A stretch of 64,000 bases of DNA from assembly GCA_965217585.1 (NCBI GenBank), contig OZ244561.1:704001-768000 (forward strand). Reading direction: 5' to 3'. The notes under the pieces are model-generated. The model was given only the letters and a program-made list of their open reading frames with translations, was not told the origin of the DNA and did not search any database. The stretch is from Candidatus Latescibacterota bacterium (GTDB lineage: Bacteria; Latescibacterota; UBA2968; UBA8231). The translations under genes and the position numbers were made by a program. Numbering within the stretch: position 1 is the stretch's first letter; every line of letters starts with the position of its first letter. Positions 2,456-47,702 of the stretch are shown here, in pieces.

Positions 2456-4426
2456 ATGCTTTTATCCCAATCGACAGGTTATTTTGTCCTTGCGTTGCTG
2501 GGCTTGGCCCTGTTTTCGACGAAGGCTTCCGGCGTCATTATCTACCGAGTCGGCACCCCGTTTGCCGCAGCGGAGAAGGACAGCCTCCAGGACCTGGGGA
2601 TCGACTTTAGAGAAATCAGCTGGTCGTTTTCGGCGCTGGAGGAAGGCCTCGAAGTAGACTCTTTAAGCGCCGGCTCCCTGCAACCCAATTTCTTCGATGA
2701 GGACGAGAATATCGCCCGGACCGCCCTGCTCAGAGGTGGTCGGATAAGCATAAATATCACGGGGCAGGAAAATACCCTATTAGCACAGGTGCTCCTGGAT
2801 GGAGATCCGAGTACGGCTTATGTGTGGCCGGAGGCCACTGGAGTCGCAACGAGGAGCGCCAGGGTAACCCTTGATCTGGGCGGAAAATTCCTCGTCAAGA
2901 AGGTGGGTTTCCGCCCCTTGGCGGAAAATCCGGGACGCTTTATAGAGAACTTCGGGGTTGGTATCGGCAATGAGCTCAAGAACACCTCTTGCGGGCAATG
3001 TATTGCGAGTCTCCCATTGGCAAATATTCAAAAACTGGGCGGCATAGCCTCGGGGCCGAGGATAAACGAGAACACAGATCCTGAGGTCACGGCGCTCCTC
3101 AATCCGCCGGATGGGGTGGAGATCCGCTTTCTCCAACTACATATTGACCGCGTAACCCCCAAGGCGATAGAGCTAGCCGCATTCGAGGTCTTTGGCGGCG
3201 GTTTCGTCAACCAAGCCTCCTATCTATCCGACATCATCGAGCTGGACGACCTCGCCAGTTGGGGCCCCATCTCCTGGTCGGGACGGCAGGATCCCAACGC
3301 CCGGATCGATATCCGCACCCGAACGGGTGCCGACCTGCAGCCGGATATCTTCTGGGAAGCCCGCCCCGAACACCAAGACAGCGTAAAGTACCTCCAAGGC
3401 GGGGGCACCCTCACAGCGAAGGACTACAAAACCCGCTACAACCGGCTCCCCGATGTGTTCAAGCCGGTAGAGCAACGCAACCGGGTCAGTCCCGATACGG
3501 AAAACTGGAGCTTCTGGTCGAGCCCCTACGATTTTGGCAAACCCGGTGCCGATGTGGTCTCTCCCAGTTCGCGCCAATTCATTCAACTCAGCGCCGATTT
3601 TACCTCCACTACCGAGGATGGGGGCAAAATCGACTATATCGAATTCAAAGCCTCCGTGCCACCGGCCGTGCGCGGGATCGTGGGTGAGATCTTCCCGCCC
3701 GAGACCCAGATCGGCGAGGTGACCCAGTTCACCTATTTCATCAAGCCGACCATTCGGGCGGGCGATCAGGGCTTTGACAGCGTGGAGATTGCCACCCCGT
3801 CGGGGTTTACCTCGGTGGATTCGCTGCGCATAGAGGGGGTTGATCAGGCCGATTTCACCTGGACGCCCCAGCCGGACGGACTGGGCTTTGAAGTGCAGTT
3901 GCCGCGCAAGCTAGGGCCAACCGACAGCGGGGCAGTTCTGGAGGTGGTATTCAAGGCCCCGGTGTTGAGAGAAGTGGGCACCTTTTTTGACGGTCGGGTG
4001 TTCGACAGTGCGAAACCGCACGAGGTGCGGCAGCAGATAGAGCCGGGCAATGCCGCTGATGAGGCCGAGAGCGAGCTGCTTTCGGTGAGAACGTCCGTGG
4101 GTCGATCCTTGTTGTTCGCGCCCCGGGTTTTTCCCCGCATCTTTACCCCCAACGGCGATGCCATCAACGAGGTATTGAATATCTCCTACACTCTCTTGCG
4201 GGTCACGGCACCCGTGCCGGTCTCGGTAGCGATCTACGATCTTTCCGGTGCCCTGATAAAGCAGGTGTACGCGGGGGATGACTCCGTTGGCGAGTACGCC
4301 CGAACCTGGGACGGCACCGATGGTTCCAACCGTCGGGTGGTGCCGGGGATCTATCTATATCGCCTAGCCGTGGATCTGCACGCAGAGACGGAAATCAGCA
4401 GCGGTATTATCTCTGTGGTCTATTAG
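2456..4426 (+). CDS. Secreted protein: discoidin/F5-8-like domain, Ig-like domain, FlgD/CHU_C-like C-terminal domain (paralog A)
   Basis: Signal peptide, LDGDPST..W and TLDLGG motifs, and a C-terminal IFTPNGDAINE...IYDLSG..IK...WDGTD...PGIYLY segment. Confidence 0.8.
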   Translation: MLLSQSTGYFVLALLGLALFSTKASGVIIYRVGTPFAAAEKDSLQDLGIDFREISWSFSALEEGLEVDSLSAGSLQPNFFDEDENIARTALLRGGRISINITGQENTLLAQVLLDGDPSTAYVWPEATGVATRSARVTLDLGGKFLVKKVGFRPLAENPGRFIENFGVGIGNELKNTSCGQCIASLPLANIQKLGGIASGPRINENTDPEVTALLNPPDGVEIRFLQLHIDRVTPKAIELAAFEVFGGGFVNQASYLSDIIELDDLASWGPISWSGRQDPNARIDIRTRTGADLQPDIFWEARPEHQDSVKYLQGGGTLTAKDYKTRYNRLPDVFKPVEQRNRVSPDTENWSFWSSPYDFGKPGADVVSPSSRQFIQLSADFTSTTEDGGKIDYIEFKASVPPAVRGIVGEIFPPETQIGEVTQFTYFIKPTIRAGDQGFDSVEIATPSGFTSVDSLRIEGVDQADFTWTPQPDGLGFEVQLPRKLGPTDSGAVLEVVFKAPVLREVGTFFDGRVFDSAKPHEVRQQIEPGNAADEAESELLSVRTSVGRSLLFAPRVFPRIFTPNGDAINEVLNISYTLLRVTAPVPVSVAIYDLSGALIKQVYAGDDSVGEYARTWDGTDGSNRRVVPGIYLYRLAVDLHAETEISSGIISVVY

Positions 4427-4507
4427 GAGGTAGAATTGCTAAACTCAGTGCAAACAAATAAATAGGCCACTTAAGGTGGTTTTTAAAAACTTAGTTTAAT
4501 TTTTTTG

Positions 4508-4536
4508 TTGCTCCTCACAAGACTCATATATATAAT
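4508..4536 (+). promoter_or_regulatory. Sigma70 promoter
   Basis: TTGCTC-17 bp-TATAAT with an AT-rich upstream tract. Confidence 0.7.
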
Positions 4537-4663
4537 AAGGCTTATATATATGGTTTGTACTTTTGCTACCTCCCCGAACATCTGAAAGGAGGTGAGGTTT
4601 AGGAGGAGTAAAAAGTAGCGCTTGCCAAAGTTCCGCACTCATTCAACGGAGGATTTTATTAAG

Positions 4664-5593
4664 ATGAAGAAAACCATGACTTTAGTATTTTTGGTGCTAG
4701 GCTTTGTGCTCTTCACCTTCTCAGTAAGCTCGGCTCACCTGCGGCCAGATGTGAATTTTGCTGCGGTACAGGTGCCCATTGGGGTCGCCGGTATCCAAGA
4801 CTATGTACCAGACGGCGATCTCAGCGAGTGGGAAAACATCCCCTCGATCTTCTGGGTGACCCACGATGATCTGGTAGAAACCGTCAGAAACATCGGAGAT
4901 CCGGATGCCTCTAATCTTGCCGTGAGAGTTATTGTCGGGTGGCACCCGGACACGGACCAGATCATCATGATGGAGGACAGGTTCGACGACGCCTTTTTTG
5001 GCACCCATGATGGTTACCAAGAGACGATCGAGTTTGTCATCGATACCGATCACAGTGCAGATCCTCAGTTCTTCAACGTGCAAGATATCGGTCTCGATCC
5101 GGACAGGTACTCTGGTGCTCTGACGCAGAATTACCGCTACCAGCTATGGAATGAGCCACCAGCGGATTTGTGGCTTTGGGGTGGAGCGCCGTGGGCTGGC
5201 GTGCCTCCCTATGCTGGACTCGGCTGGAGTTTTGACGGCGACCTGAATGGTGGGTCGGGCAACCTGAGCATGGAGATGTACATGACCGCGTTCGATGATT
5301 TGCCCAATCCGAGCACCGGTCCCGACAGTCCGGAAGTGCTCTTCCACGATTTAGTGGAGGGCGAAATCATCGGCCTAGGCTTTGCCCTTCAGGACGCAGA
5401 TGATCCGGAATCGAGCCGTTACAACGGCTATTGGACGAACGGCGGCGACACCGAACTCTACATCAAGGCGACCTCATTGGTCGACTACACGCTGCTTGGC
5501 TGGAATGCCGGTCTATGGGTAGAAGGAGATGACACGGCCTCATCAGTTGAGTCCGATTCTTGGGGCCGCATAAAGTCGACCTTTACCCACTAA
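4664..5593 (+). CDS. Secreted CBM9/DOMON-like sugar-binding-type protein with C-terminal SVESDSWGRIKSTF tail
   Basis: ATG 4664 follows GGAGG. It has a signal peptide (MKKTMTLVFL...SSA), PDGDLSEW and G..IGLGFALQDAD motifs typical of CBM9-like folds, and is acidic and Trp-rich. Confidence 0.7.
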   Translation: MKKTMTLVFLVLGFVLFTFSVSSAHLRPDVNFAAVQVPIGVAGIQDYVPDGDLSEWENIPSIFWVTHDDLVETVRNIGDPDASNLAVRVIVGWHPDTDQIIMMEDRFDDAFFGTHDGYQETIEFVIDTDHSADPQFFNVQDIGLDPDRYSGALTQNYRYQLWNEPPADLWLWGGAPWAGVPPYAGLGWSFDGDLNGGSGNLSMEMYMTAFDDLPNPSTGPDSPEVLFHDLVEGEIIGLGFALQDADDPESSRYNGYWTNGGDTELYIKATSLVDYTLLGWNAGLWVEGDDTASSVESDSWGRIKSTFTH

Positions 5594-5625
5594 GGATTAA
5601 TGTTTGGGAGGGTAAAGCTTAGTTT

Positions 5626-5662
5626 GGGGGGCGAAATTATAGTAGTTTCGCCCCCCTTTTTT
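5626..5662 (+). terminator. Intrinsic terminator hairpin (copy 2)
   Basis: GGGGGGCGAAA...TTTCGCCCCCC followed by TTTTTT, just after the stop of 4664-5593. Confidence 0.8.
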
Positions 5663-5688
5663 AATAACCTAGACCGACAAGAACAGGT

Positions 5689-7650
5689 ATGCTTTTACCC
5701 CAATCGACAGGTTATTTTGTCCTTGCGTTGTTGGGCTTATCCCTGTTTTCGACGGAGGCTTCCGGCGTGATTATCTACCGAGTTGGAAGCCCATTTACCG
5801 CAGCGGAAAAAGACAGTCTCCAGGACCTGGGAATCGACTTTAGAGAACTCGACTGGTCGTTTTCCGAGCTGGAGGAAAGCCTCGAATTGGACTCTTTAAG
5901 CATCGGTTCCCTTCAACCCAATTTCTTCGATGAGGACGAGGACATCGCCCAGACCGCCTTGAGCAGAGGTGGAGAGGTGCACATAACCGTATTCGCGCAT
6001 GAAAACAGCTTGGTCGGGCAGGTGCTCTTGGATGGGGATCCGAGCACGGCTTATGTGTGGGAAGAGGCCGTTGGAGTCAGTTCGCGCCAAGCTAGGGTAA
6101 CCCTCAATCTGGGCGGAAAATTCCTCGTCAAGAAGGTGGGTTTCCGCCCCTTGGCGGAAAATCCGGGACGCTTTTTAGAGAGTTTCAGTGTTGGTGTCAC
6201 CAATGTGCCATTCGAAACTTTCCGCATTCCGACTCTCCCCGCAGTTAATGTTCAAAAACCGGGCGGCACCGCCCCAGGGCCGAGAATAAACGGGAACACA
6301 GATCCTGAGGTCCTCGTCCTCCTCAATCCGCCGGATGGGGTGGAGATCCGTTTTCTCCAGCTAGATATTGACCGCGTAACCCCCAAGGCGATAGAGCTAG
6401 CCGCATTCGAGGTCTTTGGCGGCGGTTTCGTCAACCAAGCCTCCTATCTATCCGACATCATCGAGCTGGACGACCTCGCCAGTTGGGGCCCCATCTCCTG
6501 GTCGGGACGGCAGGATCCCAACGCCCGGATCGATATCCGCACCCGAACGGGTGCCGACCTGCAGCCGGATATCTTCTGGGAAGCCCGCCCCGAACACCAA
6601 GACAGCGTAAAGTACCTCCAAGGTGGAGGCACCCTCACAGCGAAGGACTACAAAACCCGCTACAACCGGCTCCCCGATGTGTTCAAGCCGGTAGAGCAAC
6701 GCAACCGGGTCAGTCCCGATACGGAAAACTGGAGCTTCTGGTCGAGCCCCTACGATTTTGGCAAACCCGGTGCCGATGTGGTCTCTCCCAGTTCGCGCCA
6801 ATTCATTCAACTCAGCGCCGATTTTACCTCCACTACCGAGGATGGGGGCAAAATCGACTATATCGAATTCAAAGCCTCCGTGCCACCGGCCGTGCGCGGG
6901 ATCGTGGGTGAGATCTTCCCGCCCGAGACCCAGATCGGCGAGGTGACCCAGTTCACCTATTTCATCAAGCCGACCATTCGGGCGGGCGATCAGGGCTTTG
7001 ACAGCGTGGAGATTGCCACCCCGTCGGGGTTTACCTCGGTGGATTCGCTGCGCATAGAGGGGGTTGATCAGGCCGATTTCACCTGGACGCCCCAGCCGGA
7101 CGGACTGGGCTTTGAAGTGCAGTTGCCGCGCAAGCTAGGGCCGACTGACAGCGGGGCGGTCTTGGAAGTGGTATTCAAGGCCTCGGTGTTGAGAGCAGTG
7201 GGCACCTTCTTTGACGGCCGGGTGTTCGACAGCACGAAACCGCACGAAGTGCGACAGCAGATAGAGCCGGGCAATGCCGCTGATGAGACCGAGAGCGAGC
7301 TGCTTTCGGTGAGAACGTCCGTGGGTCGATCCTTGTTGTTCGCGCCCCGGGTTTTTCCCCGCACCTTTACCCCCAACGGCGATGCCATCAACGAGGTATT
7401 GAATATCTCCTACACTCTCTTGCGGGTCACGGCACCCGTGCCGGTCTCGGTAGCGATCTACGATCTTTCCGGTGCTCTGATAAAGCAGGTGTATGCCGGC
7501 GACGATCCTATCGGCGAGTACACCCGCTCTTGGGATGGCACCGATGGTTCCAACCGTCGGGTGGTGCCGGGGATCTATCTATACCGCCTAGCGGTAGATC
7601 TGCACACAGAGACGGAAGTCAGCAGCGGTATTATCTCTGTGGTCTATTAG
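5689..7650 (+). CDS. Secreted discoidin-like/Ig-like/FlgD-CHU_C-like CTD protein (paralog A')
   Basis: Close paralog of 2456-4426 with the same motifs. Confidence 0.8.
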   Translation: MLLPQSTGYFVLALLGLSLFSTEASGVIIYRVGSPFTAAEKDSLQDLGIDFRELDWSFSELEESLELDSLSIGSLQPNFFDEDEDIAQTALSRGGEVHITVFAHENSLVGQVLLDGDPSTAYVWEEAVGVSSRQARVTLNLGGKFLVKKVGFRPLAENPGRFLESFSVGVTNVPFETFRIPTLPAVNVQKPGGTAPGPRINGNTDPEVLVLLNPPDGVEIRFLQLDIDRVTPKAIELAAFEVFGGGFVNQASYLSDIIELDDLASWGPISWSGRQDPNARIDIRTRTGADLQPDIFWEARPEHQDSVKYLQGGGTLTAKDYKTRYNRLPDVFKPVEQRNRVSPDTENWSFWSSPYDFGKPGADVVSPSSRQFIQLSADFTSTTEDGGKIDYIEFKASVPPAVRGIVGEIFPPETQIGEVTQFTYFIKPTIRAGDQGFDSVEIATPSGFTSVDSLRIEGVDQADFTWTPQPDGLGFEVQLPRKLGPTDSGAVLEVVFKASVLRAVGTFFDGRVFDSTKPHEVRQQIEPGNAADETESELLSVRTSVGRSLLFAPRVFPRTFTPNGDAINEVLNISYTLLRVTAPVPVSVAIYDLSGALIKQVYAGDDPIGEYTRSWDGTDGSNRRVVPGIYLYRLAVDLHTETEVSSGIISVVY

Positions 7651-7678
7651 TCTTAGTTAATGAAGCGGGTAGCGATCT

Positions 7679-10318
7679 ATGACCTCATTAAAACGAAATG
7701 GCAAACCAAAGAGAACGATCCTAGCTTGTCTTTTATTTCCCATGATCTGGGGAGGATTATTTGTCGACTCGGTTGCTTGGGGACAGCGGGTGGACCAAGG
7801 GGGGTACGCCATAGAGGACGGGAGCAAGGTGGTCATCGATTCAAAAGACCAATGGGATCTCTGGCAGTCTGTTCACAAGACGATCCAGATCAGCGAAGAG
7901 GGGGAAGTGCGGCCTGCCTTCATCCGCAAGGGGATAAACGCTATCGCAAATGCCGCTGAGTTTGGAGGCGGTATCCGAGCCGCGGGTTCTAATCTTGCGG
8001 CCGCGGATGCCCTTTTGGACGGCGATATGAACACCTTCTGGGAACCGGATCTTTCAGATCTTCCAGAGAACTGGTGGGTACAAATTGATCTGGGACGGGG
8101 GGTATCTGCTAACAAGATTGTCCTCAAGTTTGTCGGGGAGGAGTTGGGGGATCCATTCCTCCACTTCGCGGTCACCACGTCTCAGGGGAAAGAATCCCTT
8201 GGCGCGCTCCAGTTTAGGAGGGTTTTCAGAACCGATCGACCGGGCCTTAATCAAAGAGTCTTCGAAGTCGATTTAACCAGCCTGCCGCCGACGAAATATC
8301 CAAATGTTGTCGGAGACTATACCGGGGACATGATCAGATATGTAGGAGTGGGCGTTACAGATAGCAATTACGGCAAGGCCCAAAAGGTCTCGGAGGCCGA
8401 GTATCTGAATCTTGTGCCCGAAGAGCAGGGAGATATAGAGTACTTCCGCCGAGAAGTATCGGGAAGGCTAAGGGTGCTGGAAGGGAAGGAGGATTGGGAT
8501 GCCCTCGAGGAGAGCCAAAAAGGGCCTTTAGTCTATTACCGCCGAGAGCGTCCAAGGCTTGCAGAGGTAGAAGTTTGGTCAATCGGCGACAATATCGGCG
8601 TGACCGTACTCGATCGTGGGGGCAAAGTGACGAGCTCCGAAAGCAATGGAGTTGAATTTGTCTTGGTGGATGGGGATATCTACAGTACTGAAGCCGCGCC
8701 GTTCTGGCCCATCAGAGGAGGGTATAATCCCGATAGGTTGCTACCGACAGAGTCACCAAAACAAGAGCGCGATGCAGTTGTAGATCTTGGAGGCACCTTT
8801 TTCGTGGACAACATCCGCTTGTTTTTTCCGGTTCACCCTGGCCCCCCAAGAGCCTACAGGATTCGGCTGTCAGACGGTTCTAGGCATGCCGACGGGACCT
8901 TGGTCTGGAAAGAAGTTGGAGCGGAGCCTAATGTCGTGGGTGGACAACTGTATCACGACCACAAATTCCCTCTCACTATAGCCAAATTTTTTGCCTATAC
9001 CTACAGGCTCTTTGTGGGGCAGGGCCGCAAAGGGTTTGCCGAGGTACAGCTTTTTGGAGAAGGCTTCATGCCGGAGTCCACGATCATATCCAACTTTGGC
9101 GGCACCGCCCCTTTTATAGAGCTGGGGAGGACTTCGCAGAATCTGGCTACAATAGAATGGGATGCGGATACACCGCCAGGTACGGATGTTATTCTTCAGA
9201 CCAAGACGGGTGATACGGTCGAAAATATAACCCACTACTACAAGAAGAACGGGGACGAATATCCCGGCACAGAAGAGGAAGCCAAGGAAGAGTACGAAAC
9301 TCAAAAGAAATTCTTCGGGGACGCATCGGTAGGGGCCATTGTCACTGAAACTATCCCGGGAAGCGATTGGAGCGGTTGGAGTGAGCGCTATTTTAAGCCG
9401 GGCGATGCGATAAAATCGCCCAGTCCCAGAAGATTCGTGTCGGTCAAAGCGACGTTTCTGACGGACAATCCTATGGTATCGGCGACCTTGCGTTCGGTGA
9501 CGCTCAATTTCGTAAACCCCGTGGCCCGCAGCGTAGTTGGCGAGATTCTGCCTCACCGTTTGAAAGAGATAGGCTCCAGTCAGGAACTGACCTATTTCAT
9601 CCGTCCGACCTTTGAGACCGTCAGTAAGGGCTTCGATGATATCCTCATAGAGGCCCCTGCCGGCGTCAAAATGAAATTCAAGCAACTCAATGTGGACCTA
9701 GCGGGGAGCTCGACTGAAAGTTATACAGCCCAGAGCGAAGGCTTTCAGATCATTTCCGAAGAGTCCGATTCGCTCTGGGTGCGTCTGCCCACTGTTATTA
9801 AAACCACTAGTGGGACGACACAAGTCGGGGTCCAATTTGATGCGACCATATTCGGCTTTACTACCTTCTTCAATGGTTCCATAGCCCATTCTTCCTTTGA
9901 AGATTCCTGGCAAAGAGTAGATGATGGCAATGCAAATGGGATTCTGGGAGACAGCGAAAAGACCGTTGTTCTAGCCCTTGAAGGCAAAGAGGTACTGGGG
10001 GCTATCGCGCTCGACCGCGAGGTTTTCACGCCCAATGCCGATGGCATCAACGATGAGCTGTCGGTGCGCTTTCCGCTCACGCGCGTGTCCAAAGCAACCC
10101 CGGTCCAGGTGCAAATATACGATCTCAGTGGCCGCCTCGTGCACGAATTGATCAATGAGCCACTCTCTGCTGGACTCCATACGGTGCCTTGGACAGGCCT
10201 CGATACCTTTGGAGAGCTAGTGCCCCCTGGCGTATATCTTCTGAGAATCGCTATTGATACCGATTCGGATTCGGTGAAAAATACTTCGGTTAATCACTTG
10301 GTACATGTCGTCTATTGA
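7679..10318 (+). CDS. Secreted protein with two discoidin-like domains and FlgD/CHU_C-like CTD (paralog B)
   Basis: LLDGDMNTFW, WWVQIDLG, VVDLGG, WSGWSERY, GEILP, VFTPNADGINDE and PGVYL motifs. Confidence 0.8.
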   Translation: MTSLKRNGKPKRTILACLLFPMIWGGLFVDSVAWGQRVDQGGYAIEDGSKVVIDSKDQWDLWQSVHKTIQISEEGEVRPAFIRKGINAIANAAEFGGGIRAAGSNLAAADALLDGDMNTFWEPDLSDLPENWWVQIDLGRGVSANKIVLKFVGEELGDPFLHFAVTTSQGKESLGALQFRRVFRTDRPGLNQRVFEVDLTSLPPTKYPNVVGDYTGDMIRYVGVGVTDSNYGKAQKVSEAEYLNLVPEEQGDIEYFRREVSGRLRVLEGKEDWDALEESQKGPLVYYRRERPRLAEVEVWSIGDNIGVTVLDRGGKVTSSESNGVEFVLVDGDIYSTEAAPFWPIRGGYNPDRLLPTESPKQERDAVVDLGGTFFVDNIRLFFPVHPGPPRAYRIRLSDGSRHADGTLVWKEVGAEPNVVGGQLYHDHKFPLTIAKFFAYTYRLFVGQGRKGFAEVQLFGEGFMPESTIISNFGGTAPFIELGRTSQNLATIEWDADTPPGTDVILQTKTGDTVENITHYYKKNGDEYPGTEEEAKEEYETQKKFFGDASVGAIVTETIPGSDWSGWSERYFKPGDAIKSPSPRRFVSVKATFLTDNPMVSATLRSVTLNFVNPVARSVVGEILPHRLKEIGSSQELTYFIRPTFETVSKGFDDILIEAPAGVKMKFKQLNVDLAGSSTESYTAQSEGFQIISEESDSLWVRLPTVIKTTSGTTQVGVQFDATIFGFTTFFNGSIAHSSFEDSWQRVDDGNANGILGDSEKTVVLALEGKEVLGAIALDREVFTPNADGINDELSVRFPLTRVSKATPVQVQIYDLSGRLVHELINEPLSAGLHTVPWTGLDTFGELVPPGVYLLRIAIDTDSDSVKNTSVNHLVHVVY

Positions 10319-10345
10319 AGTCAATCCGGGGAAGGGATAGATAGG

Positions 10346-12058
10346 TTGAGGTTGAGTAGACCACATTTTTTCAGACCATCGTGGGTGTGGCTCCTTTTCT
10401 TTGCATCAACAGGACAGGCTCACGGAGAGGTCGTCATCGTAGGGGGTGGTCCGGGTACATCTGCGTGGGACGGACAATATTCTGAGATATCCGTCATCGA
10501 TTTTGAAACTAATCCCGGTCAGATCCAGCCCATTCAAAATGAACCCGAGGATAATATTGCCTTAAAAATACTCGAAAGAGGAGGTAAGGTAACATCGCCC
10601 AATGCGAGAATAGTGCTCGAATTATCCGACGCTGAGTCAATTAAACTCTTAAATCATATGGTCAGCGGTGATAGGACCAAGGCCTTTGAAGTTAAGGGGA
10701 TCGTTGCTATAGGAGTCATAATTGATATAGACCTAGGCCAGCGTTTTGCGGTCAACAGACTCAGGTTTTTTCCGAGGGAAGGTTTCGAAGGCTTTTTTCT
10801 GAAGGGCTACGAAATATCTTTAAACGATGGTAGTGAGGAGCAGAGGACCTTGGCGGGAAGGCCCGATTTCAGGCTCTTTAAAACAGTAGAGCGCAACACC
10901 AAATCAATAGTCGAAGAGAATATACCACTGCAATTTGTCCGTTTTATAAAGTTAAAACAGCTTGTTAGAGGAGAGTGGGAGATCGACGAGATGCAAATCT
11001 TCGGCGAAGGATTTGCCTCTGAAGCTTCGTACACATCAAAGGTATTCGATCAACAACAGCCTGCCGTCTTTGGGGGGATAATATGGTCCGGGGGGCATAT
11101 AGGCGAACCGACCAAAGCAGGTGTCACCCTATCTACAAGGAGCGGCACCAGTCCAGATCCCAGTGACTCTTTAGCCTGGAGCACCTGGTCGCCTCCCTAC
11201 CCTCCGGGAGTTCTCACTGATATCTCATCACCGGCACCCCGTCAATTTTTTCAGTTTCGCTTCCTCTTTACAAGCGACGATTTTTTTTCTGCGGCCACGG
11301 TTGACTCGCTCGCATTTGAGGTTTCTCCTGCACTGACTGATTCGGTGAAGGGCGAGATCCAGCCGCAAAATGCCTTTATCGGGCAAGCTACTACATTCAC
11401 CTATACCCTGAGGTCGTTTAATAGCAGAGGCTTCGACCGCCTCCAGATAAAGACCCTAGCACCGGTAGATGTGGTACGATCAGTGGCAATAGATGGAACC
11501 GATATCCCCATCGACTTTGTCAATGTCGAAGACGGGGTCCAGATCAGCTTCCCCAAGATTATGGGAAACAGCACCCTTAAAGTGGTCTTCGACAGCATAG
11601 CCCTGCAGTACAACACCGTCTTCAGCGGCAAGGTCTCCGATAGCTCCAGATCCGACAATCTGCCCCAATTGGTTGTAGCGGGGGACACAGATACCCTGAC
11701 CGCAGGAGGAGACCTTTCCGTCACGATCCTCGTGGGCAAAAACCTGCTCCACGCGCTGGACGTGGCTCCTGCCATTACACCGAATGGAGACGGAGTAAAT
11801 GATGAACTCCTCATAACCTATGATATCGTCAACCTGACGCATGCAGCTCCGGTTTCGGTAAGGGCATATGATCTTGCTGGCAGACTTGTAAAGGAGATTT
11901 ATTATGGTTTGGATTCCAGTGGGAGATACCAGAAGGCCTGGGATGGAACCGACAATGGTAGACAAAAGATGGGACCTGGAATCTATCTGGTGCACCTAGA
12001 GATAGAGGCAGATTCGGGGACAGAAGGCAAAACGGCAATCGTATCTTTAGCCTATTGA
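10346..12058 (+). CDS. Secreted discoidin-like/FlgD-CHU_C-like CTD protein (paralog C)
   Basis: Signal peptide, IDIDLG, WSTWSPPY, GEIQP, ITPNGDGVNDE and WDGTD..PGIYL motifs. Confidence 0.8.
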   Translation: MRLSRPHFFRPSWVWLLFFASTGQAHGEVVIVGGGPGTSAWDGQYSEISVIDFETNPGQIQPIQNEPEDNIALKILERGGKVTSPNARIVLELSDAESIKLLNHMVSGDRTKAFEVKGIVAIGVIIDIDLGQRFAVNRLRFFPREGFEGFFLKGYEISLNDGSEEQRTLAGRPDFRLFKTVERNTKSIVEENIPLQFVRFIKLKQLVRGEWEIDEMQIFGEGFASEASYTSKVFDQQQPAVFGGIIWSGGHIGEPTKAGVTLSTRSGTSPDPSDSLAWSTWSPPYPPGVLTDISSPAPRQFFQFRFLFTSDDFFSAATVDSLAFEVSPALTDSVKGEIQPQNAFIGQATTFTYTLRSFNSRGFDRLQIKTLAPVDVVRSVAIDGTDIPIDFVNVEDGVQISFPKIMGNSTLKVVFDSIALQYNTVFSGKVSDSSRSDNLPQLVVAGDTDTLTAGGDLSVTILVGKNLLHALDVAPAITPNGDGVNDELLITYDIVNLTHAAPVSVRAYDLAGRLVKEIYYGLDSSGRYQKAWDGTDNGRQKMGPGIYLVHLEIEADSGTEGKTAIVSLAY

Positions 12059-12097
12059 TCCATTGCGATTTCAACTAAAAAATAAGGTGGGATTCTC

Positions 12098-14812
12098 ATG
12101 GTGGGTCATACTCTCAGATCTAAAGTGCTTAATATAGTTTCAACAGCCATGGTTTGCTCTGTAGGTTCACTGGTGCTGATTTTCAACACTCACTCTGTGG
12201 CTCAAGATACTGCTTCGACGCGAATAAAAGGGATACGTCGAGGTGGTGAGCTTACCTTTGAACCAACCGGACCTGGTGTCATGTTTGGTGCCTTGGACCC
12301 GGCGGTCAAAAAATGGTACGTGCCGCAGGAACTCTACTCGGAGTATCAGTGGAAGCAGTGGGAGTACACCAACTACGCCCGGAATCGCTACCGGCGCTAT
12401 GTGAATACTGCCAACGAAGGAGATTATTTCTACGATCTCTACGGTTCCTATATCACCCGGGGTTGGTTGATCTACGACTGGACCCAGACCCAACCCCAGC
12501 AGGGGGGCAGCAACCTGTTCAAAGACTCGAAGTTCGCGAGCTTTTTCAGCAACCTAATCATAGCCTCCGATCAAAAGGGACAGCACTTTCTGGCAGTAAC
12601 CATAGGCAATCAGATCAGGTCAACCCTGACGCCGATGACCTTCTCTAAACCGGCGTTTGACGGGATTCAGGTGGATTATCAGTCCGACAAATACGAGGTG
12701 ACCACCATCCTTTCACGGATCAGTTCCCCCGGAGGTGCTGGTGTACGCAACCCCGCCATTAATGAGAGGACCACCCTGACGACCTTGATGGGGGGGAGAA
12801 CGACAGCGCAGGTGGGAGATCTTGTCAAAGTCGGAGCCAACTATGTAAGCGCCCACAACTCCTTTCAACTCCTCGATGCCTTTGAGGGGAGTCCGCGAAG
12901 CGGTTCGATTACCTCGAGTCAAAATGTCGAGAACATAACACAACTTTTCGTCCGTCTTTCGGACGATTCACCCGAGGACAACGAAGGTGGCACCACCCTC
13001 TTTGCATGGGATCTGATCATAGAAGCCGATGTTGTAGAAATCGACCCTGTTACGGGAGAGCCGACCACCCGGAGAGAAAAGGTACGGGCAAGCGAAGTAG
13101 GACTTACACCTTCTCCCCAGGGTGGCTTTCAACGCCGGGGATTCTGGGAAGCCAGCGGTTCCGAGCAGATAGACCTAGAATTCGATCTTACGGACTCGAG
13201 ATACACAGGCCCTGATCCAACAGAAATAAGACAGGTAACGTTCGAGTTGGTGGTGGCAAACGACTACAGGATTGAGGTGTCTTCAAACCGTCAGACAAAC
13301 AGGCAAGGCAGCAAGGTCTTCCTGCTGGCAGCCCGAGCCTTAGACAACGTCAAGGATGGCTCGAATTTAAGGGTCCTCGAAATCCCTTACGGCCTACCGA
13401 CAGCCACCGAAATATACGGGGGAACTCTTGAGGTAGAAAATTTTCTGGGATTTGATTTTTACGGAGAATTCGACCGGAGCACCAGTTACAGAAAGTATCC
13501 CAACACGGCGCAAACAAAACACTTATCAGGCTCTGATGAAGGCGATGGCTGGATAATGACCTTATCGAAGAGGACCGATCCATGGTTCTTCTTCAGCGAA
13601 GCCTACAGAATGGACCACGATTACAATACAAGCGCAATTCTGGCCAAGGGAGAGGTTCTTATAGACTACGAAGACAGGACTCAATTTTACTACGAATTTG
13701 TTGACGACAACGACGATCAGGATAGAAGACCCGATTGGTCGAGGGTATTCGAAGACACGGATGTGGAGGTGTTCCCCGGCCTAGACGAGAACTATGATTT
13801 TATATCTGATTTTAATCAAAATGACAGCAGAGACCGACCCAATCTAGTGCCCGACTACGAAGAGCCATTTTTAAGGTATAACACAGACCGACCCGAGTAT
13901 CTGTTCGGTGTCGACATGAACAACAATGTGTGGGTAGATCGATTCGAAAACGACGATGAACCAGACCTTCCCTATAATAGAGATCACAGAGGGTACAATG
14001 TTTATTTAGGTGCCGATATCGTTCCGGGGATAAGGGCCACATTCGGCCACAACAATGAGAAACTCCTTGCAGGTGCCAGGAACAACACCACCAGCTATTT
14101 TCTGTTGACTCTGAACAAGGACTACCCAGGTCTGGGCAAGCTGAAGATCTTCGAGAATCTGAAGCTAGCAAAGGACGATATAGAAAACGATCTACGCCAG
14201 TGGGACGAAGTGGAAAGAAGGAACGTTCCGACCATCGATCCACTGGCCGCCCAAGATACATGGATAAGTTCGGCTTATGCAAGTTTTGACTATACAAAGG
14301 TCAGGGACCTGAACATTATTAGCAAAATAAAATACGATCGGTGGCATCAACGGAAAAATCAGCCGGATTTGAGGGAGAATTTTACTTTTTTCGGCTTGAT
14401 CAATAAGGTAGACTACAGATTTAAGATTGGGACTTTTGATATCCGGCCGAAGATTAAAAACGAACTGAGGATAGAAACACCAGTACTTAAGACATCTCCC
14501 AAACGCCAAGAAGATACCATACTTATGATTCTGCTGGCACGATGGCCCTTGCTCAACCTTTCCTCGATTGAAGCGGGAGTGGAGTATACTATCTTCCAGC
14601 AGCTCAGAGATTCGGATAAAGCCGTTCGGGAAGGGCTCGACGACGACTTTACTGAAATCGTGGGAGCAGCGCAATTCTCCAACACTTCAAACTACCTGGG
14701 ATACAGCCTGACAACCCAGATGGGCTTCAGACTGAGTAGAAGGAACCTTGATGGAGAAGATGCCGAAATGGGCCGAGTAGCCTTTGCCACGGTTTATGCC
14801 GGTTTCGAATAA
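12098..14812 (+). CDS. Large secreted protein, probable outer-membrane beta-barrel with Asp-rich loops
   Basis: Signal peptide, many amphipathic aromatic-ended strands, DxNxD-type loops and a C-terminal ATVYAGFE strand. Confidence 0.55.
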   Translation: MVGHTLRSKVLNIVSTAMVCSVGSLVLIFNTHSVAQDTASTRIKGIRRGGELTFEPTGPGVMFGALDPAVKKWYVPQELYSEYQWKQWEYTNYARNRYRRYVNTANEGDYFYDLYGSYITRGWLIYDWTQTQPQQGGSNLFKDSKFASFFSNLIIASDQKGQHFLAVTIGNQIRSTLTPMTFSKPAFDGIQVDYQSDKYEVTTILSRISSPGGAGVRNPAINERTTLTTLMGGRTTAQVGDLVKVGANYVSAHNSFQLLDAFEGSPRSGSITSSQNVENITQLFVRLSDDSPEDNEGGTTLFAWDLIIEADVVEIDPVTGEPTTRREKVRASEVGLTPSPQGGFQRRGFWEASGSEQIDLEFDLTDSRYTGPDPTEIRQVTFELVVANDYRIEVSSNRQTNRQGSKVFLLAARALDNVKDGSNLRVLEIPYGLPTATEIYGGTLEVENFLGFDFYGEFDRSTSYRKYPNTAQTKHLSGSDEGDGWIMTLSKRTDPWFFFSEAYRMDHDYNTSAILAKGEVLIDYEDRTQFYYEFVDDNDDQDRRPDWSRVFEDTDVEVFPGLDENYDFISDFNQNDSRDRPNLVPDYEEPFLRYNTDRPEYLFGVDMNNNVWVDRFENDDEPDLPYNRDHRGYNVYLGADIVPGIRATFGHNNEKLLAGARNNTTSYFLLTLNKDYPGLGKLKIFENLKLAKDDIENDLRQWDEVERRNVPTIDPLAAQDTWISSAYASFDYTKVRDLNIISKIKYDRWHQRKNQPDLRENFTFFGLINKVDYRFKIGTFDIRPKIKNELRIETPVLKTSPKRQEDTILMILLARWPLLNLSSIEAGVEYTIFQQLRDSDKAVREGLDDDFTEIVGAAQFSNTSNYLGYSLTTQMGFRLSRRNLDGEDAEMGRVAFATVYAGFE

Positions 14813-14864
14813 TCTAAAGATGACCTATTTCTTGCCCGCTTTTGGGTGCAGAGCGAGTTTGCGT

Positions 14865-16538
14865 ATGGACGCTAAAGTTTGGGGCTTCTCAATCGCACTT
14901 TTGGCTATATGCATGAGTTGCGCAGAGGAGACTGATGCTCCAGAAGTCACTCAGGATGATCTGGTAGTCGCCGAGGTGGGAGACAAGGCGATAACCGTCA
15001 AGCAATTGCGAGAATTCAGCGATAACCTTCCCAAACGTCACCAGAGCATAAAAACAGGGCTGGAGAGAGAAAGGGATCACCTGCAGACAATGATCGATAT
15101 GGAGTTTCTGCTAATGGAGGCCCTAAACGAGCGTATTGCCCAAAGCCCTGATTTTCTCAGAAAAATGGAAACAATAAAAAAAAGAAAGCTTGTCGGTGTA
15201 TTTCAACAAAGAAATATAAAGGTAAAAATAAAAGAAAATGAGATACAAGAATACGTGGAAAGGGAGGAACTCTCTAGGGCACTCAGGCTAGGGGATATAT
15301 TAGTCGATAGCAAGGATAAAGCAGAGGCTGTGTTCGCGGAACTCAAAGGAGGGGAAAGTTTTGCGCAGGTTGCTGAGAAATGGTCCATGAATAAAGATAC
15401 TTCAACTAGGGGTGGCGATATGGGCCAATATCTCATCAAAGATCAAATGATCCCAATTCTCCAGGATACGTTATTCTCTCTTGCGGTGGGCGAGGTATCA
15501 GCACCCATAAAAATTGGCAACCGCTATTCGATTTTTAAAGTCATCGCTGAAAAGATCATCAATCTCAACCCACAACAGCGGACGAAGATCGAACAGGATT
15601 TCGGAATAATTAAACTTGGTCTTGAAAGGGCGGCTTTGGTAGAACAGCTCAAGAATAGGTACCGTCTTGAAGTGGACCGAGGAGGGTTGAAAGCTTTTGT
15701 TGAAAGTTTGCGTCAAGGCGCATTATTTGCTGCGGAGGATGAACACAACATCGTCATCTATAGATACGACAAGGGACAAATAACCGCAGGAGATCTTGTC
15801 GACGTGGCTGGTGATCTTAAGGGTGATGTCCTTGCCAGTCTTACAGATGGCAAACGAGTACTCTCTTTTGCAGAGAAATATGCCATTCCCGCCATAATGA
15901 TAATGGAAGCCGCTCTGGATGCCGGCATAGATAAGGAAGAAGAGATAACAACATGGCTCAAAGATCAGAGGAGACAGCTTTTACTAGCAGAACTTAGGAG
16001 CAAAGCGTTGGAGGGCAAAATTAACCTGTCTACGGAGGCCCTTCAGCAGCACTACGACAGCCATCCGAAAAAGTACCTGCATCCTGAGCAACTAGATATA
16101 CAGGAAATACTGGTAGAGACAGAGCCAGAGGCACAGCGCCTTATCGAGAAGATTCAAGAGGGGGTCCCGATGGGCGAACTCGCACGGAAGTATACTCTCC
16201 GGTCCGTACAGGACCAGGGTGATGAAGAAGGCAGATTCCATTTTCACGAACACGAAAGTCCGCATTTTGGCGGTTTAGTAGAGGCCGCGTTTGAGGCTCA
16301 GATAGGGGAACTAAAAGGCCCTGTTGAGGTGAAGGACGGTTATTCTATATTCAAGGTACTATCTAGGGAACGAAAGAGGGAGACCTTTGCGGAGGCCAAA
16401 TGGCGGGTCAGAAGAGAGGTTAAAAAGATTAAATCCCGGGCGGTATTTAATCGATATGTAGAAGGCCTGCGGAATAAATACGAATCACATGTAAGCATTC
16501 GGGAAGATCATCTCAAAACTGCTTTCGAGATGAGGTAG
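14865..16538 (+). CDS. Parvulin-type peptidyl-prolyl isomerase (PrsA/SurA-like), probable lipoprotein
   Basis: Lipobox-like LAICMSC and VVAEVGDKAIT. Two rotamase domains (F..VAEKWS..TRGGDMG; ELARKY...GPVEVKDGYSIFKV). The start could be 14820. Confidence 0.85.
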   Translation: MDAKVWGFSIALLAICMSCAEETDAPEVTQDDLVVAEVGDKAITVKQLREFSDNLPKRHQSIKTGLERERDHLQTMIDMEFLLMEALNERIAQSPDFLRKMETIKKRKLVGVFQQRNIKVKIKENEIQEYVEREELSRALRLGDILVDSKDKAEAVFAELKGGESFAQVAEKWSMNKDTSTRGGDMGQYLIKDQMIPILQDTLFSLAVGEVSAPIKIGNRYSIFKVIAEKIINLNPQQRTKIEQDFGIIKLGLERAALVEQLKNRYRLEVDRGGLKAFVESLRQGALFAAEDEHNIVIYRYDKGQITAGDLVDVAGDLKGDVLASLTDGKRVLSFAEKYAIPAIMIMEAALDAGIDKEEEITTWLKDQRRQLLLAELRSKALEGKINLSTEALQQHYDSHPKKYLHPEQLDIQEILVETEPEAQRLIEKIQEGVPMGELARKYTLRSVQDQGDEEGRFHFHEHESPHFGGLVEAAFEAQIGELKGPVEVKDGYSIFKVLSRERKRETFAEAKWRVRREVKKIKSRAVFNRYVEGLRNKYESHVSIREDHLKTAFEMR

Positions 16539-16628
16539 AGGCGCGTGCTGTATGTCCCGTGTAACCGGCGGTATCCGACTAGTTGCCGCGCTAGGTCTTG
16601 ACGCGGATTGAGGTCGGCAAGAAACGGG

Positions 16629-18623
16629 ATGGAATTGAAAAATCAAGTCCCAACGGAATACCAAGATTATATAAAAAGCCAGCAGCCATCCGGTCAGGAT
16701 CTTGAAGGCATTCCCGCACGGGGAATACTGATCGGGGCGGTGCTGGCTTTTCTGCTCAATTTCCTAGATGCCTATGCCACGACCATCATCCGTGGCTCGT
16801 ACCTGACCTTAAACTTCAGCACTCCGGCCGCGCTGTTTTTTTTGTTTTTTGTGGTCCTGGCCAGCGGTCTGGTCAACCTCCTCCGCCGACCTCTGGCTCT
16901 GAATCGATCCGAGCTGATCACGATCTACATTATGCTGGTAGTGGCCTGCTGTATCCCGGGCATGGGCTTCACGCAATTCATAATTCCCTGTCTTTTGGGT
17001 TCCACTTACTATGCCACGCCCGAGAACAACTGGGATTTCCTCTACAACCAGTACATCCCCGACTGGATGATCCCCCGGGGCGAAAACGTGGCGCGTTTCT
17101 TCTACGAAGGTCTGCCCGAGGGTGCGGCCATCCCCTGGGGCGCTTGGGTAGTACCGCTGAGTTTCTGGTACGGGTTTTTTCTGGTGCTCAGCTTCGCCAT
17201 GATCTGCACCATGGTCATCCTACGTCAGCAGTGGATGGACCGGGAAAAGCTAGTCTATCCACTGGTCCAAGTGCCCATGGAGATGATCGGTCGAGAAAAG
17301 GGAGGAATGATTGGTCGGTCGTTTTTCACCAACAAAGCCATGTGGATCGGCTTTGCCGTATCATCCATTCTGCTCAGTATCAACGGCCTGCACTCCTACT
17401 TTCCGACCTTTCCGCATACCACCAAGACCTTCGTATTGCCCTTATTCCGCGATACGGTCAGCCTGAATTTCTGGTTTAGTCCGCCTTGGACAGGCTTTTT
17501 CTACTTCGTCAACCTCGATATCACGGCCTCAATCTGGATATTCTACATTCTCACCACTGTCCAGCGGGGCATTTTCAATATCGTCGGCTTGCAGAGCACG
17601 GAGCGGATCGATTTCTACTCTATCGAACCTTTTCTGGCCCATCAGGGCATGGGCTCCATGATCGTCTTTGTGCTAGTGGGGTTGTGGGTGGGACGCGGCC
17701 ATTTACAAAATGTATACCGCAAAGCCTTCCATGGCGACGAAGAGGTCGACGACAGCGGCGAGATGCTATCCTACCGGCAGGCCCTTTTCGGCCTGCTAGC
17801 GGCGCTTGCCCTAGTGGTGGTCTGTCTATGCATGATGGGACTAACTTTTCCCACGGCACTTTTATTCATCTTTGGTGCGATGATGCTGTTTATAGGGCTA
17901 ACTCGGGTAGTGGCCGAAGGGGGCATCCCGGCCATGCGGCCCCCTATCATGACTTCGAGCTTTGTCATTTCGGGGGCCGGTGCCTCGGCCTTGGGTGCCT
18001 CGGGTCTGGTAGCCCTGGGCTTTTCCTACGGCTGGCACTCCGAAGTGCGCTCCTTTGTCATGGCGTCTGTAGCCAACGGACTGAAGATGGGTGAGATCAT
18101 CACCGGTTCCAAGCGCCGGCTATTCTGGGCCGTGGTCATTGCCATTGTGGTCAGTCTGGCCGGCTCGTCGTATATGACCCTAGTGCTGGCCTACAAATAC
18201 GGGGGCATCAATCTCAATCCGCTCTTTTTTGTGGGGCAGGCCCCCACCTTCGGTCCTCGGGATATGGCCCCGCGCATCGCCGCAGAGCTGCCCGGCCCAA
18301 GACTGGACGCTTGGCTGTTCATGGGCATTGGTGGGGGGGTGATGGCCCTGCTGATGTGGGCGCGGCACCAGTTCGTCTGGTGGCCGCTCAATCCCCTCGG
18401 CTATACCATCAGCGCCAACTGGAAGACGGGACATATCTTTGGCAGCGCCTTTCTCGCGTGGCTGCTCAAACTGTTAATTCTGCGCTACGGTGGTTCCAAG
18501 CTGTACCGGGGTTTGCGGCCATTTTTTCTCGGCCTGATCTTGGGCGAGATCGTGACGGCGGGCGGATGGCTGGTGCTGGATTATATAACCGGACACATGG
18601 GGAGCTTTCTCACGCAAATCTAA
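16629..18623 (+). CDS. Polytopic inner-membrane protein, DUF6785/DUF6784-like putative (peptide) transporter
   Basis: More than 12 TM segments with QWMDREKLVYPLVQVP, RVVAEGG, WWPLNPLGY and LRPFFLGLILGE motifs. Confidence 0.75.
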   Translation: MELKNQVPTEYQDYIKSQQPSGQDLEGIPARGILIGAVLAFLLNFLDAYATTIIRGSYLTLNFSTPAALFFLFFVVLASGLVNLLRRPLALNRSELITIYIMLVVACCIPGMGFTQFIIPCLLGSTYYATPENNWDFLYNQYIPDWMIPRGENVARFFYEGLPEGAAIPWGAWVVPLSFWYGFFLVLSFAMICTMVILRQQWMDREKLVYPLVQVPMEMIGREKGGMIGRSFFTNKAMWIGFAVSSILLSINGLHSYFPTFPHTTKTFVLPLFRDTVSLNFWFSPPWTGFFYFVNLDITASIWIFYILTTVQRGIFNIVGLQSTERIDFYSIEPFLAHQGMGSMIVFVLVGLWVGRGHLQNVYRKAFHGDEEVDDSGEMLSYRQALFGLLAALALVVVCLCMMGLTFPTALLFIFGAMMLFIGLTRVVAEGGIPAMRPPIMTSSFVISGAGASALGASGLVALGFSYGWHSEVRSFVMASVANGLKMGEIITGSKRRLFWAVVIAIVVSLAGSSYMTLVLAYKYGGINLNPLFFVGQAPTFGPRDMAPRIAAELPGPRLDAWLFMGIGGGVMALLMWARHQFVWWPLNPLGYTISANWKTGHIFGSAFLAWLLKLLILRYGGSKLYRGLRPFFLGLILGEIVTAGGWLVLDYITGHMGSFLTQI

Positions 18624-24842: not shown

Positions 24843-24930
24843 GAGACCGGTGCTTTCTAGTTTGACCGCTTCACGCGTCCTTCCAAATTTGTTATAGTTG
24901 TAGGTATTGTCACCTAATGGAAGGGGCCTC

Positions 24931-30811: not shown

Positions 30812-30887
<76 letters not shown>

Positions 30888-44901: not shown

Positions 44902-44949
44902 TTGATTGATTATGTTTACACTTATAGTATATATTTTAAAAGTGTAAAC
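44902..44949. promoter_or_regulatory. Promoter plus inverted-repeat operator between divergent DUF2188 and XRE-ImmA
   Basis: TTGATT-17-TAGTAT (44902-44930) and GTTTACACTT-N16-AAGTGTAAAC (44914-44949). Confidence 0.65.
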
Positions 44950-44967
44950 TTCAACATCAGGAGCCAC

Positions 44968-47678: not shown

Positions 47679-47702
47679 TTTGTACCGCAATAATATACAT
47701 CA

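Follow-up and report, generated by a model that had tools for sequence, protein, structure and literature searches.

A recurrent Latescibacterota gene cassette for CTD-bearing, lectin-like proteins and a large predicted outer-membrane beta-barrel

Gene content of the cassette

The window considered here is a stretch of 64,000 nucleotides from a Candidatus Latescibacterota genome (contig OZ244561.1, positions 704,001 to 768,000). Between positions 2456 and 18623 it carries a cassette of genes for putative surface proteins with a common C-terminal domain (CTD), a large predicted outer-membrane beta-barrel, a lipoprotein with peptidyl-prolyl cis-trans isomerase (PPIase) domains and a membrane protein of the DUF6785 family. 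This cassette is conserved, multi-copy and repeatedly duplicated in Latescibacterota and allied lineages of the FCB group.

In the list of open reading frames (ORFs), the genes from A (2456-4426) to DUF6785 (16608-18623) form one co-oriented run on the forward (+) strand. Gene A encodes a CTD protein of 656 aa with a signal peptide, a lectin-like N-terminal domain, beta-sandwich domains and a C-terminus of the CHU_C/FlgD_ig kind. It is followed by the gene for a secreted 323-aa protein of a CBM9-like family (4622-5593), located between A and B, and by B itself (5689-7650, 653 aa), a recent duplicate of A with 90% identity. Gene C (7679-10318) encodes a CTD protein of 879 aa with an extra N-terminal discoidin domain, and D (10346-12058) one of 570 aa, of the type usually found immediately upstream of the barrel gene. 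The predicted barrel of 904 aa, a member of an undescribed family, is encoded at 12098-14812. A lipoprotein of 584 aa with two parvulin PPIase domains, SurA/PrsA-like, follows at 14784-16538, and the run closes with a polytopic inner-membrane protein of 671 aa, DUF6785 plus DUF6784. Intergenic distances across the named ORFs are 27-195 nt, or the ORFs overlap. From B onwards the spacing is 27-69 nt or overlapping, which fits a single operon, and the gene after DUF6785 is convergent. An earlier note on this DNA, made from the sequence alone, had listed the named ORFs with exact positions and orientation, but had left the 323-aa ORF, a member of the cassette, unmentioned.

CTD proteins

The four CTD proteins are paralogous (BLASTP: A/B 90% identity, A/D E=5e-56, A/C E=7e-37, C/D E=2e-31). 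The paralogy claimed in the earlier note thus holds, but the proteins represent three types (A, C and D) plus the recent A duplicate rather than four equivalent members. All motifs named there fall on invariant columns of the four-way alignment, i.e. W351 S352 x W354 S355 xx Y358, S369 P370 xx R373 x F375, G410 E411 I412 x P414, T564 P565 N566 x D568 xx N571, Y594 D595 L596 x G598, W618 x G620, P630 G631 x Y633 L634 and the terminal Y656. Read by eye, each translation begins with a Sec-type signal in which a hydrophobic stretch leads to a site of small residues, and a lipobox Cys at the cleavage position is seen in none of A-D.

At the C-terminus, Pfam CHU_C (PF13585) is matched by all four proteins with 31.6-35.1 bits (cut-off 27), and FlgD_ig fits as well, again in four of four (31.1-35.5 bits, cut-off 27). 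Judged from these matches, the domain belongs to the type IX CTD / FlgD-Ig beta-sandwich kind; as the NCBIfam CTD models stay below their cut-offs, any subtype is tentative. Of the two models relevant to the type-B assignment made previously, CHU_C is matched above its cut-off and TIGR04131 is not. A discoidin-like domain, formerly ascribed to all four proteins, is recovered in C, where F5_F8_type_C (32.5 bits) and F5_F8_type_C_2 (34.4 bits; cut-offs about 28) match residues 108-171 inside a C-specific N-terminal extension; A, B and D of the window have no Pfam match to F5_F8_type_C. Among the profiles that the earlier note had proposed as a check, CHU_C, FlgD_ig and DUF6785 score above their cut-offs, and F5_F8_type_C is found in C only.

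The two A-type proteins differ unevenly along their length. Their N-terminal domains (aa 30-265) are 78% identical, with 0.148 nonsynonymous (dN) and 0.331 synonymous (dS) substitutions per site in a codon analysis, whereas the central part (aa 265-520) is 98.8% identical with a dS of 0.063; outside the N-terminal domain identity is 94-99%. At the DNA level, a central tract of about 800 nt is almost identical and the 5' third is diverged. The A/B pair of the closest genome (locus L001) has the same pattern, with a central dS of 0.22. Because central dS is as low as 0.06 within the window genome and 0.33-0.43 between orthologues, the C-terminal two thirds of A and B are homogenised within each genome by concerted evolution, the N-terminal domains being distinct and orthologous. 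Such a pattern would fit a variable specificity domain on a common scaffold.

An AlphaFold2 model of D, built with 25 family sequences from related loci, reaches a mean predicted local distance difference test (pLDDT) of 85.5 and a predicted template modelling score (pTM) of 0.71. It consists of a beta-rich N-terminal domain that extends to roughly residue 250, a pair of smaller sandwiches and, at 468-568, the sandwich of the CTD. Its Foldseek matches are those of a generic multi-domain beta-sandwich protein (galactose oxidase, PorU, FN3 and Ig modules, C5a peptidase), and no enzyme domain is evident from the model and these matches. Among the 25 D-family members, Pfam detects CHU_C in 25 (E≤0.01), FlgD_ig in 23, F5_F8_type_C in nine and Por_Secre_tail in one.

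The 904-aa barrel

The 904-aa protein has no Pfam match (even at E≤10) and no NCBIfam or PDB sequence match; family profiles searched against PDB yielded nothing, or chance matches with E>2, and did not recover SlpA. The family is large, with more than 1137 homologues among 7998 candidates scored and 723 representative clusters at 50% identity (E≤0.001), and its full-length members reach down to 24-31% identity. In an AlphaFold2 model, a signal helix (residues 2-29) is followed, within residues 199-902, by some 27-28 long strands, mostly with pLDDT 70-88. Foldseek finds 64 PDB matches at E≤0.001, and those listed are almost all outer-membrane barrels: MtrB, SlpA (8ae1 and 7zgx, ranks 2-3), FimD/PapC, LptD, porins and SprA. 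The protein is therefore predicted, from its model, to be a large outer-membrane beta-barrel of an uncharacterised family, in agreement with its first reading as barrel-like. A 904-aa protein that is no barrel had been named as a finding that would undo the proposal, and the model does not point that way.

The segment 531-626 is the most conserved in the family, with a mean pairwise identity of 58% as opposed to 27-37% elsewhere. It is acidic and Asp/Asn-rich, and one stretch, read from the sequence, is spaced like a calcium loop of EF-hand type. Neither this insert (residues 520-641) nor the N-terminal region has a Pfam match at E≤10. Fused forms of the barrel were also looked for among proteins of 1583-4520 aa and none was found, which is weak evidence.

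SlpA_C (PF21620) appears below threshold (19.8-34.2 bits, cut-off 35) in six of nine distant barrel relatives scanned; the window barrel (Pfam, E≤10) and two family profiles do not match SlpA, and Pfam detects no domain of the wall-binding kind, SLH included, in the barrel. Homology to SlpA is not accepted here, since every score lies below the cut-off. LptD, likewise among the fold matches, is rejected as an identity for the barrel because the window has a separate LptD_2 gene outside the cassette (48415-51096).

In Pfam and NCBIfam the barrel matches neither Plug nor TonB_dep_Rec nor TIGR04056, and no protein of the cluster has a SusD-type match there; the neighbour of the barrel is D, a beta-sandwich chain. 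The cluster is hence devoid of a TonB-dependent receptor by these profiles, as had been noticed before, and likewise of SusD. A TonB-dependent receptor gene is located outside the cassette, 6 kb downstream (24907-27498); its product has an N-terminal CarboxypepD_reg domain and resembles the SusC/RagA N-terminus, with a TIGR04056 score of 56 bits, far below the cut-off.

CBM9-like protein, PPIase lipoprotein and DUF6785 protein

For the 323-aa protein Pfam yields no match, not even at E≤10, but CBM9_1 is detected in five of 22 family members scanned (best E=3.8e-6). Its first match in the ESM Atlas (0.97) is a cluster with CBM9_1 in 13% of its members, and a separately clustered group was joined to the family, whose HMM matches 22 of 22 of them. 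The best PDB match of the profile, a beta-xylanase (E=0.056), is not significant.

The 584-aa protein matches Rotamase (76.4 bits) and Rotamase_2 (76.3 bits) in Pfam, each over two stretches, and weakly SurA_N_3 (18.9 bits, cut-off 27.2); the SurA and PrsA equivalog models of NCBIfam stay far below their cut-offs. Most printed N-termini of the family in other loci consist of a signal peptide followed by a lipobox-like Cys, so the label of a lipoprotein is right, and with the two rotamase domains the protein is the two-parvulin lipoprotein it had been taken for. Its true start is probably the ATG at 14865, to judge from the sequence.

The 671-aa protein matches DUF6785 with 420.4 bits (cut-off 25) and DUF6784 with 100.9 bits (cut-off 26.4). 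A hydropathy scan yields 13 peaks, partly overlapping, which correspond to about 11 distinct hydrophobic segments. The nearest named ESM Atlas clusters are annotated as 'peptide transporter'/OPT, at 0.77-0.79 and thus below the reliability level of the tool. Against PDB nothing meaningful was found, the one match being DitZ (E=0.02 over 50 residues).

Conservation, copy number and co-divergence

A pattern scan of contigs based on an alignment of 32 barrel sequences recovered at least 505 stretches encoding relatives, with at least 635 pattern matches, from which the best 80 loci were kept. ORFs of at least 120 aa in these loci were searched with the window proteins (phmmer, E≤1e-5). Fifty-nine of the 80 loci are at least 20 kb long, the shorter ones being truncated contigs. 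The best 80 loci are labelled as Latescibacterota/Latescibacteria metagenome-assembled genomes (MAGs) in 63 cases, Handelsmanbacteria in one, Gemmatimonadota/Gemmatimonadetes/Gemmatimonadaceae/Gemmatimonas in 14 and 'uncultured bacterium' in two. More distant barrel relatives add Marinimicrobia and 'Bacteroidetes bacterium' MAGs. Where named, which is the case for a minority of the matches, members of the barrel family belong to FCB-group lineages only. A single Latescibacterota chromosome of 6.6 Mb (OZ220690.1) holds seven of the best 80 loci, and several others hold 3-5. Locus L001 is the orthologue of the window cluster; its barrel is 94% identical, and its genes, A, the 323-aa gene and B among them, are arranged in the same order.

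At least one CTD paralog is present in all 59 loci of 20 kb or more (79 of all 80), at least two in 59 of 59 (72/80) and at least three in 57 of 59 (65/80). The CBM9-like family occurs in 50 of the 59 long loci (59/80), the PPIase in 49 (52/80) and DUF6785 in 34 (36/80). A D gene is located immediately upstream of the barrel gene in 46 of the 59 (57/80), and two barrel genes are found in 14 (23/80). Gene order varies among subfamilies, and the parts list persists. That the genes might fail to co-occur in other genomes had been named as the finding that would undo the proposal of a conserved module; with at least two CTD paralogs in every long locus, the module stands.

Tandem or near-tandem barrel pairs account for the 23 loci with two barrel genes (L036-L046, L050, L053, L079, L080 and others), and the second barrel gene can come with a second D gene, for example in L047, L059 and L067.

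When loci are compared in pairs, the identity of their barrels correlates with that of the nearest D, A, C, DUF6785 and CBM9-like genes (Spearman 0.60-0.74), and more weakly with that of the PPIase (Spearman 0.50); for each partner the observed value was reached in none of 200 permutations. From these counts and correlations, the core of the cassette consists of three CTD-bearing, lectin-like proteins, a CBM9-like protein and the large barrel, and its parts diverge in step. This core is usually joined by the parvulin lipoprotein and often by DUF6785 and by proteins combining a GT-C-type membrane domain with TPR repeats (GT-C/TPR). The multi-copy state, the CBM9-like gene, the GT-C/TPR and FG-GAP genes near other cassettes and a PorZ-like gene of the window (both described below) are absent from the earlier note.

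Neighbour genes of sister cassettes

Proteins of about 570-750 aa with TPR repeats are encoded in 35 of the 80 loci, often immediately after the barrel gene. Six of eight scanned possess a PMT_2 (GT-C) membrane domain before the repeats, and two also match TMTC_DUF1736. Genes of this GT-C/TPR kind, found in L012, L013, L052, L054, L061-L063, L066, L070, L072-L074, L077 and others, encode look-alikes of the eukaryotic TMTC O-mannosyltransferases. A passage of PMC7001481 describes a contribution of eukaryotic TMTC proteins to the O-mannosylation of cadherin domains. By analogy one may speculate that the GT-C/TPR proteins glycosylate the beta-sandwich proteins of the cassette.

FG-GAP/ASPIC-UnbV proteins are encoded beside cassettes in 20 of 80 loci. 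Further neighbours vary and comprise enolase-superfamily blocks, amidohydrolases, isochorismatase, GDSL esterases, proteins of the FGE-sulfatase fold, PhyH dioxygenases and SBP_bac_1 ABC systems; nucleotidyl-transferase genes occur in one cassette subfamily.

Candidate type IX marker, possible leader elements and other genes in the window

A PorZ-like protein of 734 aa is encoded at 55568-57772 (+ strand), with Reg_prop, PorZ_N_b_propeller and a C-terminal domain of FlgD_ig type. It aligns with positions 121-757 of the 757-position model NF052228 (T9SS_PorZ) at 192.9 bits (E=1e-56) and does not reach the cut-off, which is 260. The presence of this gene suggests that the organism has a type IX secretion system. 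PorP/SprF was found neither for the 904-aa and 323-aa proteins (Pfam, E≤10) nor in the example proteins scanned for the 32 most recurrent neighbour clusters.

The gene upstream of the cassette (27-2312, + strand) encodes a multi-transmembrane, spermidine-synthase-like protein with C-terminal TPR repeats (Spermine_synth 88.8 bits, TPR_19, NF037959 fused MFS/SpdSyn 69.8 bits), possibly an accessory gene; homologues of at least 500 aa are located beside cassettes in seven of 80 loci. Its GC content is 39.8%, compared with 46-58% in the cassette genes and 61% in the rest of the window. The cluster as a whole is low in GC, far more so in the window and L001 than in the remaining loci, which differ by -1.6 points on average. 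This hints at lateral acquisition.

Between this gene and A there is a promoter-like site (2345-2374, + strand) and, downstream of it, a hairpin resembling a terminator (2402-2427), some 30 nt ahead of the A start codon. A second copy of the hairpin (5626-5656, + strand) has a similar distance, about 30 nt, from the start of B. Both copies are near-identical and GC-rich, with a T-run after each. The hairpin pattern matches twice in the window and not at all in 100 shuffles, and among the 80 sister loci it recurs in L001 only. Rfam at gathering thresholds detects nothing in the cluster, its sole match in the window being a tRNA (30812-30884). The hairpins could be a leader or attenuator, or merely the terminator of the upstream gene.

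On the other side, a 426-aa protein encoded on the reverse (-) strand (18684-19964) adjoins the cassette also in L001, L003, L005 and L006 and has no Pfam, NCBIfam or PDB match. Elsewhere in the window, a DUF4159 gene (57774-58427) directly follows the PorZ-like gene, and 42 kb from the cassette (60896-62506) there is a gene for an FG-GAP/ASPIC-UnbV protein whose family is also found beside cassettes of other loci. A regulator gene with helix-turn-helix (HTH) and IrrE/M78 peptidase domains (44902-46104) adjoins an AbiEii/AbiEi type IV toxin-antitoxin pair (46166-47690).

Proposed function and alternative explanations

The reading that we prefer, with a probability of roughly 40%, is that the secreted lectin-like proteins dock on the barrel of their own cassette and that a ligand is thereby captured and possibly imported. 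A, C and D would be exported through the inner membrane by Sec and then through the outer membrane by type IX secretion, and would stay on the surface by docking on the barrel, which would play the role that PorP/SprF holds in type-B cargo systems of Bacteroidota. The variable N-terminal domains would capture a ligand that is probably a glycan or some other polymer. Having passed the barrel, it would be carried through the inner membrane by DUF6785, or in some cassettes by an ABC system, and would reach locus-specific enzymes. The PPIase, together with the GT-C/TPR proteins of sister cassettes, may fold or modify the secreted components. The logic would resemble that of a SusCD locus, assembled from unrelated parts and lacking a TonB-dependent receptor. 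In favour of this reading we count the domains and paralogy of A-D, the strand pattern and fold matches of the barrel, the synteny, the multi-copy state, the co-divergence, the lectin-type modules (F5/8 type C, CBM9_1), the variable N-terminal end, the catabolic and transport neighbours, the PorZ-like gene and the parallel to PorP-like barrels. The interpretation given in the earlier note, which had also proposed a hetero-oligomer of the CTD proteins, is thus supported in part.

Several results weigh against this reading. The NCBIfam models for type IX CTDs stay below their cut-offs in the window proteins, with 19.2-23.7 bits for TIGR04131 (type B, cut-off 35) and 17.6-22.6 bits for TIGR04183 (type A, cut-off 23), and as the domain matches FlgD_ig as well as CHU_C it is possible that it is a purely structural Ig domain. 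Within the 64-kb window the PorZ-like gene is the only type IX component gene recognised, and no protein of the cluster matches PorP_SprF or TIGR03519 (Pfam and NCBIfam, E≤0.01). The barrel model, built from 26 sequences, is moderate (mean pLDDT 58.6, pTM 0.51), its residues 29-226 and 531-626 are effectively unmodelled (pLDDT <50), and its fold matches have TM-scores of only about 0.2, so that no particular class of barrel is indicated. The transporter nature of DUF6785 is hinted at by the OPT-like lead at 0.77-0.79, its sole basis, and 25 of the 59 long loci do not contain the gene. No glycoside hydrolase or other carbohydrate-active enzyme (CAZyme) was found in the examples scanned for the 32 unlabelled neighbour clusters that recur most. 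The co-divergence, finally, partly reflects shared ancestry of orthologous loci and not function; because many loci are orthologous across related genomes, it indicates duplication and descent as a unit, not binding.

The absence of CAZymes among the recurrent neighbours scanned and the missing DUF6785 genes speak for the display of a surface coat or adhesin without import. The barrel would be an anchor only, as barrels of SlpA/OmpM type are or as PorP is for SprB, A, C and D would form a lectin-like layer by which the cell attaches to particles or other cells, and the multiple cassettes would provide alternative coats. The three proteins are beta-sandwich chains without an enzyme domain, SlpA ranks second and third among the fold matches of the barrel and its C-terminal model recurs below threshold in six of nine distant relatives, and the GT-C/TPR neighbours in 35 of 80 loci fit glycosylated surface proteins. 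We nevertheless consider a coat unlikely, if worth keeping in mind: the barrel carries no SLH or wall-binding domain, neither the window protein nor the two profiles match SlpA, and a coat does not explain why DUF6785 or ABC transporters, and catabolic enzymes, are encoded beside it so repeatedly. Display by a docking barrel also has to be set against self-contained secretion, in which the barrel would be an usher-like or Slam-like translocon for A, C and D that recognises the CTD, is served by the parvulin as chaperone and works independently of type IX secretion. The sub-threshold NCBIfam models are in line with this, as are the FimD/PapC ushers and LptD among the fold matches, the dedicated periplasmic PPIase in 49 of 59 long loci and the bond between D and the barrel, which adjoin in 57 of 80 loci and of which extra barrels bring an extra D (L047, L059, L067). 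However, CHU_C passes its cut-off in all four window proteins and matches every one of the 25 D-family members (E≤0.01), a PorZ-like gene is present, the named family members belong to the FCB group only, and neither usher plug nor chaperone-like Pfam domains were found; TM-scores of about 0.2 do not single out ushers either. Such a translocon therefore appears improbable.

The neighbour genes admit one more direction of transport, the export of a polysaccharide or other polymer through the barrel in the manner of exporters that combine TPR repeats and a barrel, with DUF6785 and the GT-C/TPR proteins synthesising or flipping it and the lectin-like proteins binding it on the surface as a matrix. 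Its support comes from the PMT_2-TPR fusion in six of eight TPR neighbours scanned, often encoded immediately after the barrel, from the nucleotidyl-transferase genes of one subfamily and from the lectin-type modules. Yet the 32 recurrent neighbour clusters scanned include no synthase-type cytoplasmic glycosyltransferase, no Wzx/Wzy and no polysaccharide co-polymerase, the window cassette lacks a GT-C gene, and uptake accounts better than export for seven or more cassettes in a genome whose catabolic neighbours differ; we give polymer export very little credence.

Docking and capture by lectin-like proteins can also be extended to a wider proposal, namely that the cassettes of Latescibacterota and allied FCB lineages constitute an as yet unrecognised, TonB-independent class of outer-membrane nutrient-capture machines. 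In these, A, C and D would be delivered by type IX secretion and helped by the CBM9-like protein, the barrel would stand in for PorP/SprF as anchor and be the uptake channel feeding DUF6785 as well, docking would perhaps involve the highly conserved acidic insert with its resemblance to a calcium loop, and individual cassettes would be tuned to different substrates by their N-terminal domains. In this full form the proposal is doubtful, though conceivable.

Latescibacterota are widespread and uncultured, and substrate uptake across their outer membrane is largely guesswork. The cassette is among their most duplicated envelope modules, and it includes a barrel family without a Pfam or NCBIfam model and a DUF6785 family without an assigned function. 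If docking on the barrel is true, the anchoring of type IX cargo would extend beyond PorV and PorP/SprF, and a SusCD-like strategy would have evolved from different parts. The cassette moreover provides testable partners for several families, i.e. the barrel, DUF6785/DUF6784, the CBM9-like protein and the bacterial TMTC-like GT-C/TPR proteins.

Comparison with known systems

A literature search, with thin coverage of subscription journals, found neither DUF6785 nor a Latescibacterota paper on type IX secretion or polysaccharide utilization together with the outer membrane, and the cassette is unmentioned in passages of PMC4454575 and PMC11495043. The systems closest to it are described from other lineages.

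Barrels of the PorP/SprF family have a size of about 300-350 aa, and PorE is a periplasmic protein with TPR and beta-propeller parts. According to passages of PMC9143113, type-B CTD proteins bind PorP-like barrels, and passages of PMC12618676 state that type-B substrates require cognate PorP/SprF shuttles. Like the type-B cargo of type IX systems (SprB-SprF, PG1035-PorP-PorE), the cassette proteins combine a Sec signal with a CHU_C-type domain, and as in type-B loci the cargo gene adjoins a gene for a predicted outer-membrane barrel and the partners are duplicated together. TPR and beta-propeller proteins near many cassettes, the FCB lineage and the PorZ-like gene complete the resemblance. In contrast, the cassette barrel, with about 900 aa and a predicted 28 or so strands, has no PorP_SprF/TIGR03519 match, the CTDs score below the TIGR04131 cut-off, and a single barrel is accompanied by three cargo types, a PPIase and DUF6785, in at least seven copies in one genome.

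With the SusC/SusD polysaccharide utilization loci (PULs) the cassettes share the occurrence of many paralogous loci, each with a barrel, surface proteins of carbohydrate-binding type, a candidate inner-membrane transporter and catabolic genes. Unlike SusC, the barrel lacks Plug and TonB_dep_Rec, and no SusD-family protein belongs to the cassette; unlike in PULs, the surface proteins carry CTDs instead of being lipoproteins, and no glycoside hydrolase was found in the 32 neighbour clusters scanned. Deinococcus SlpA/OmpM (PF21620) resembles the cassette protein in being a very large barrel, in the fold matches to 8ae1 and 7zgx and in the weak SlpA_C scores of six of nine relatives, but all scores of the cassette family are below cut-off, the window barrel has no match and SLH is absent.

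Judged by its genes, the cassette fits no described uptake or secretion system, sharing a CTD of the CHU_C kind with type-B cargo and its multi-locus logic with PULs. It is filed here under surface proteins of the type IX kind that come with an outer-membrane partner of their own.

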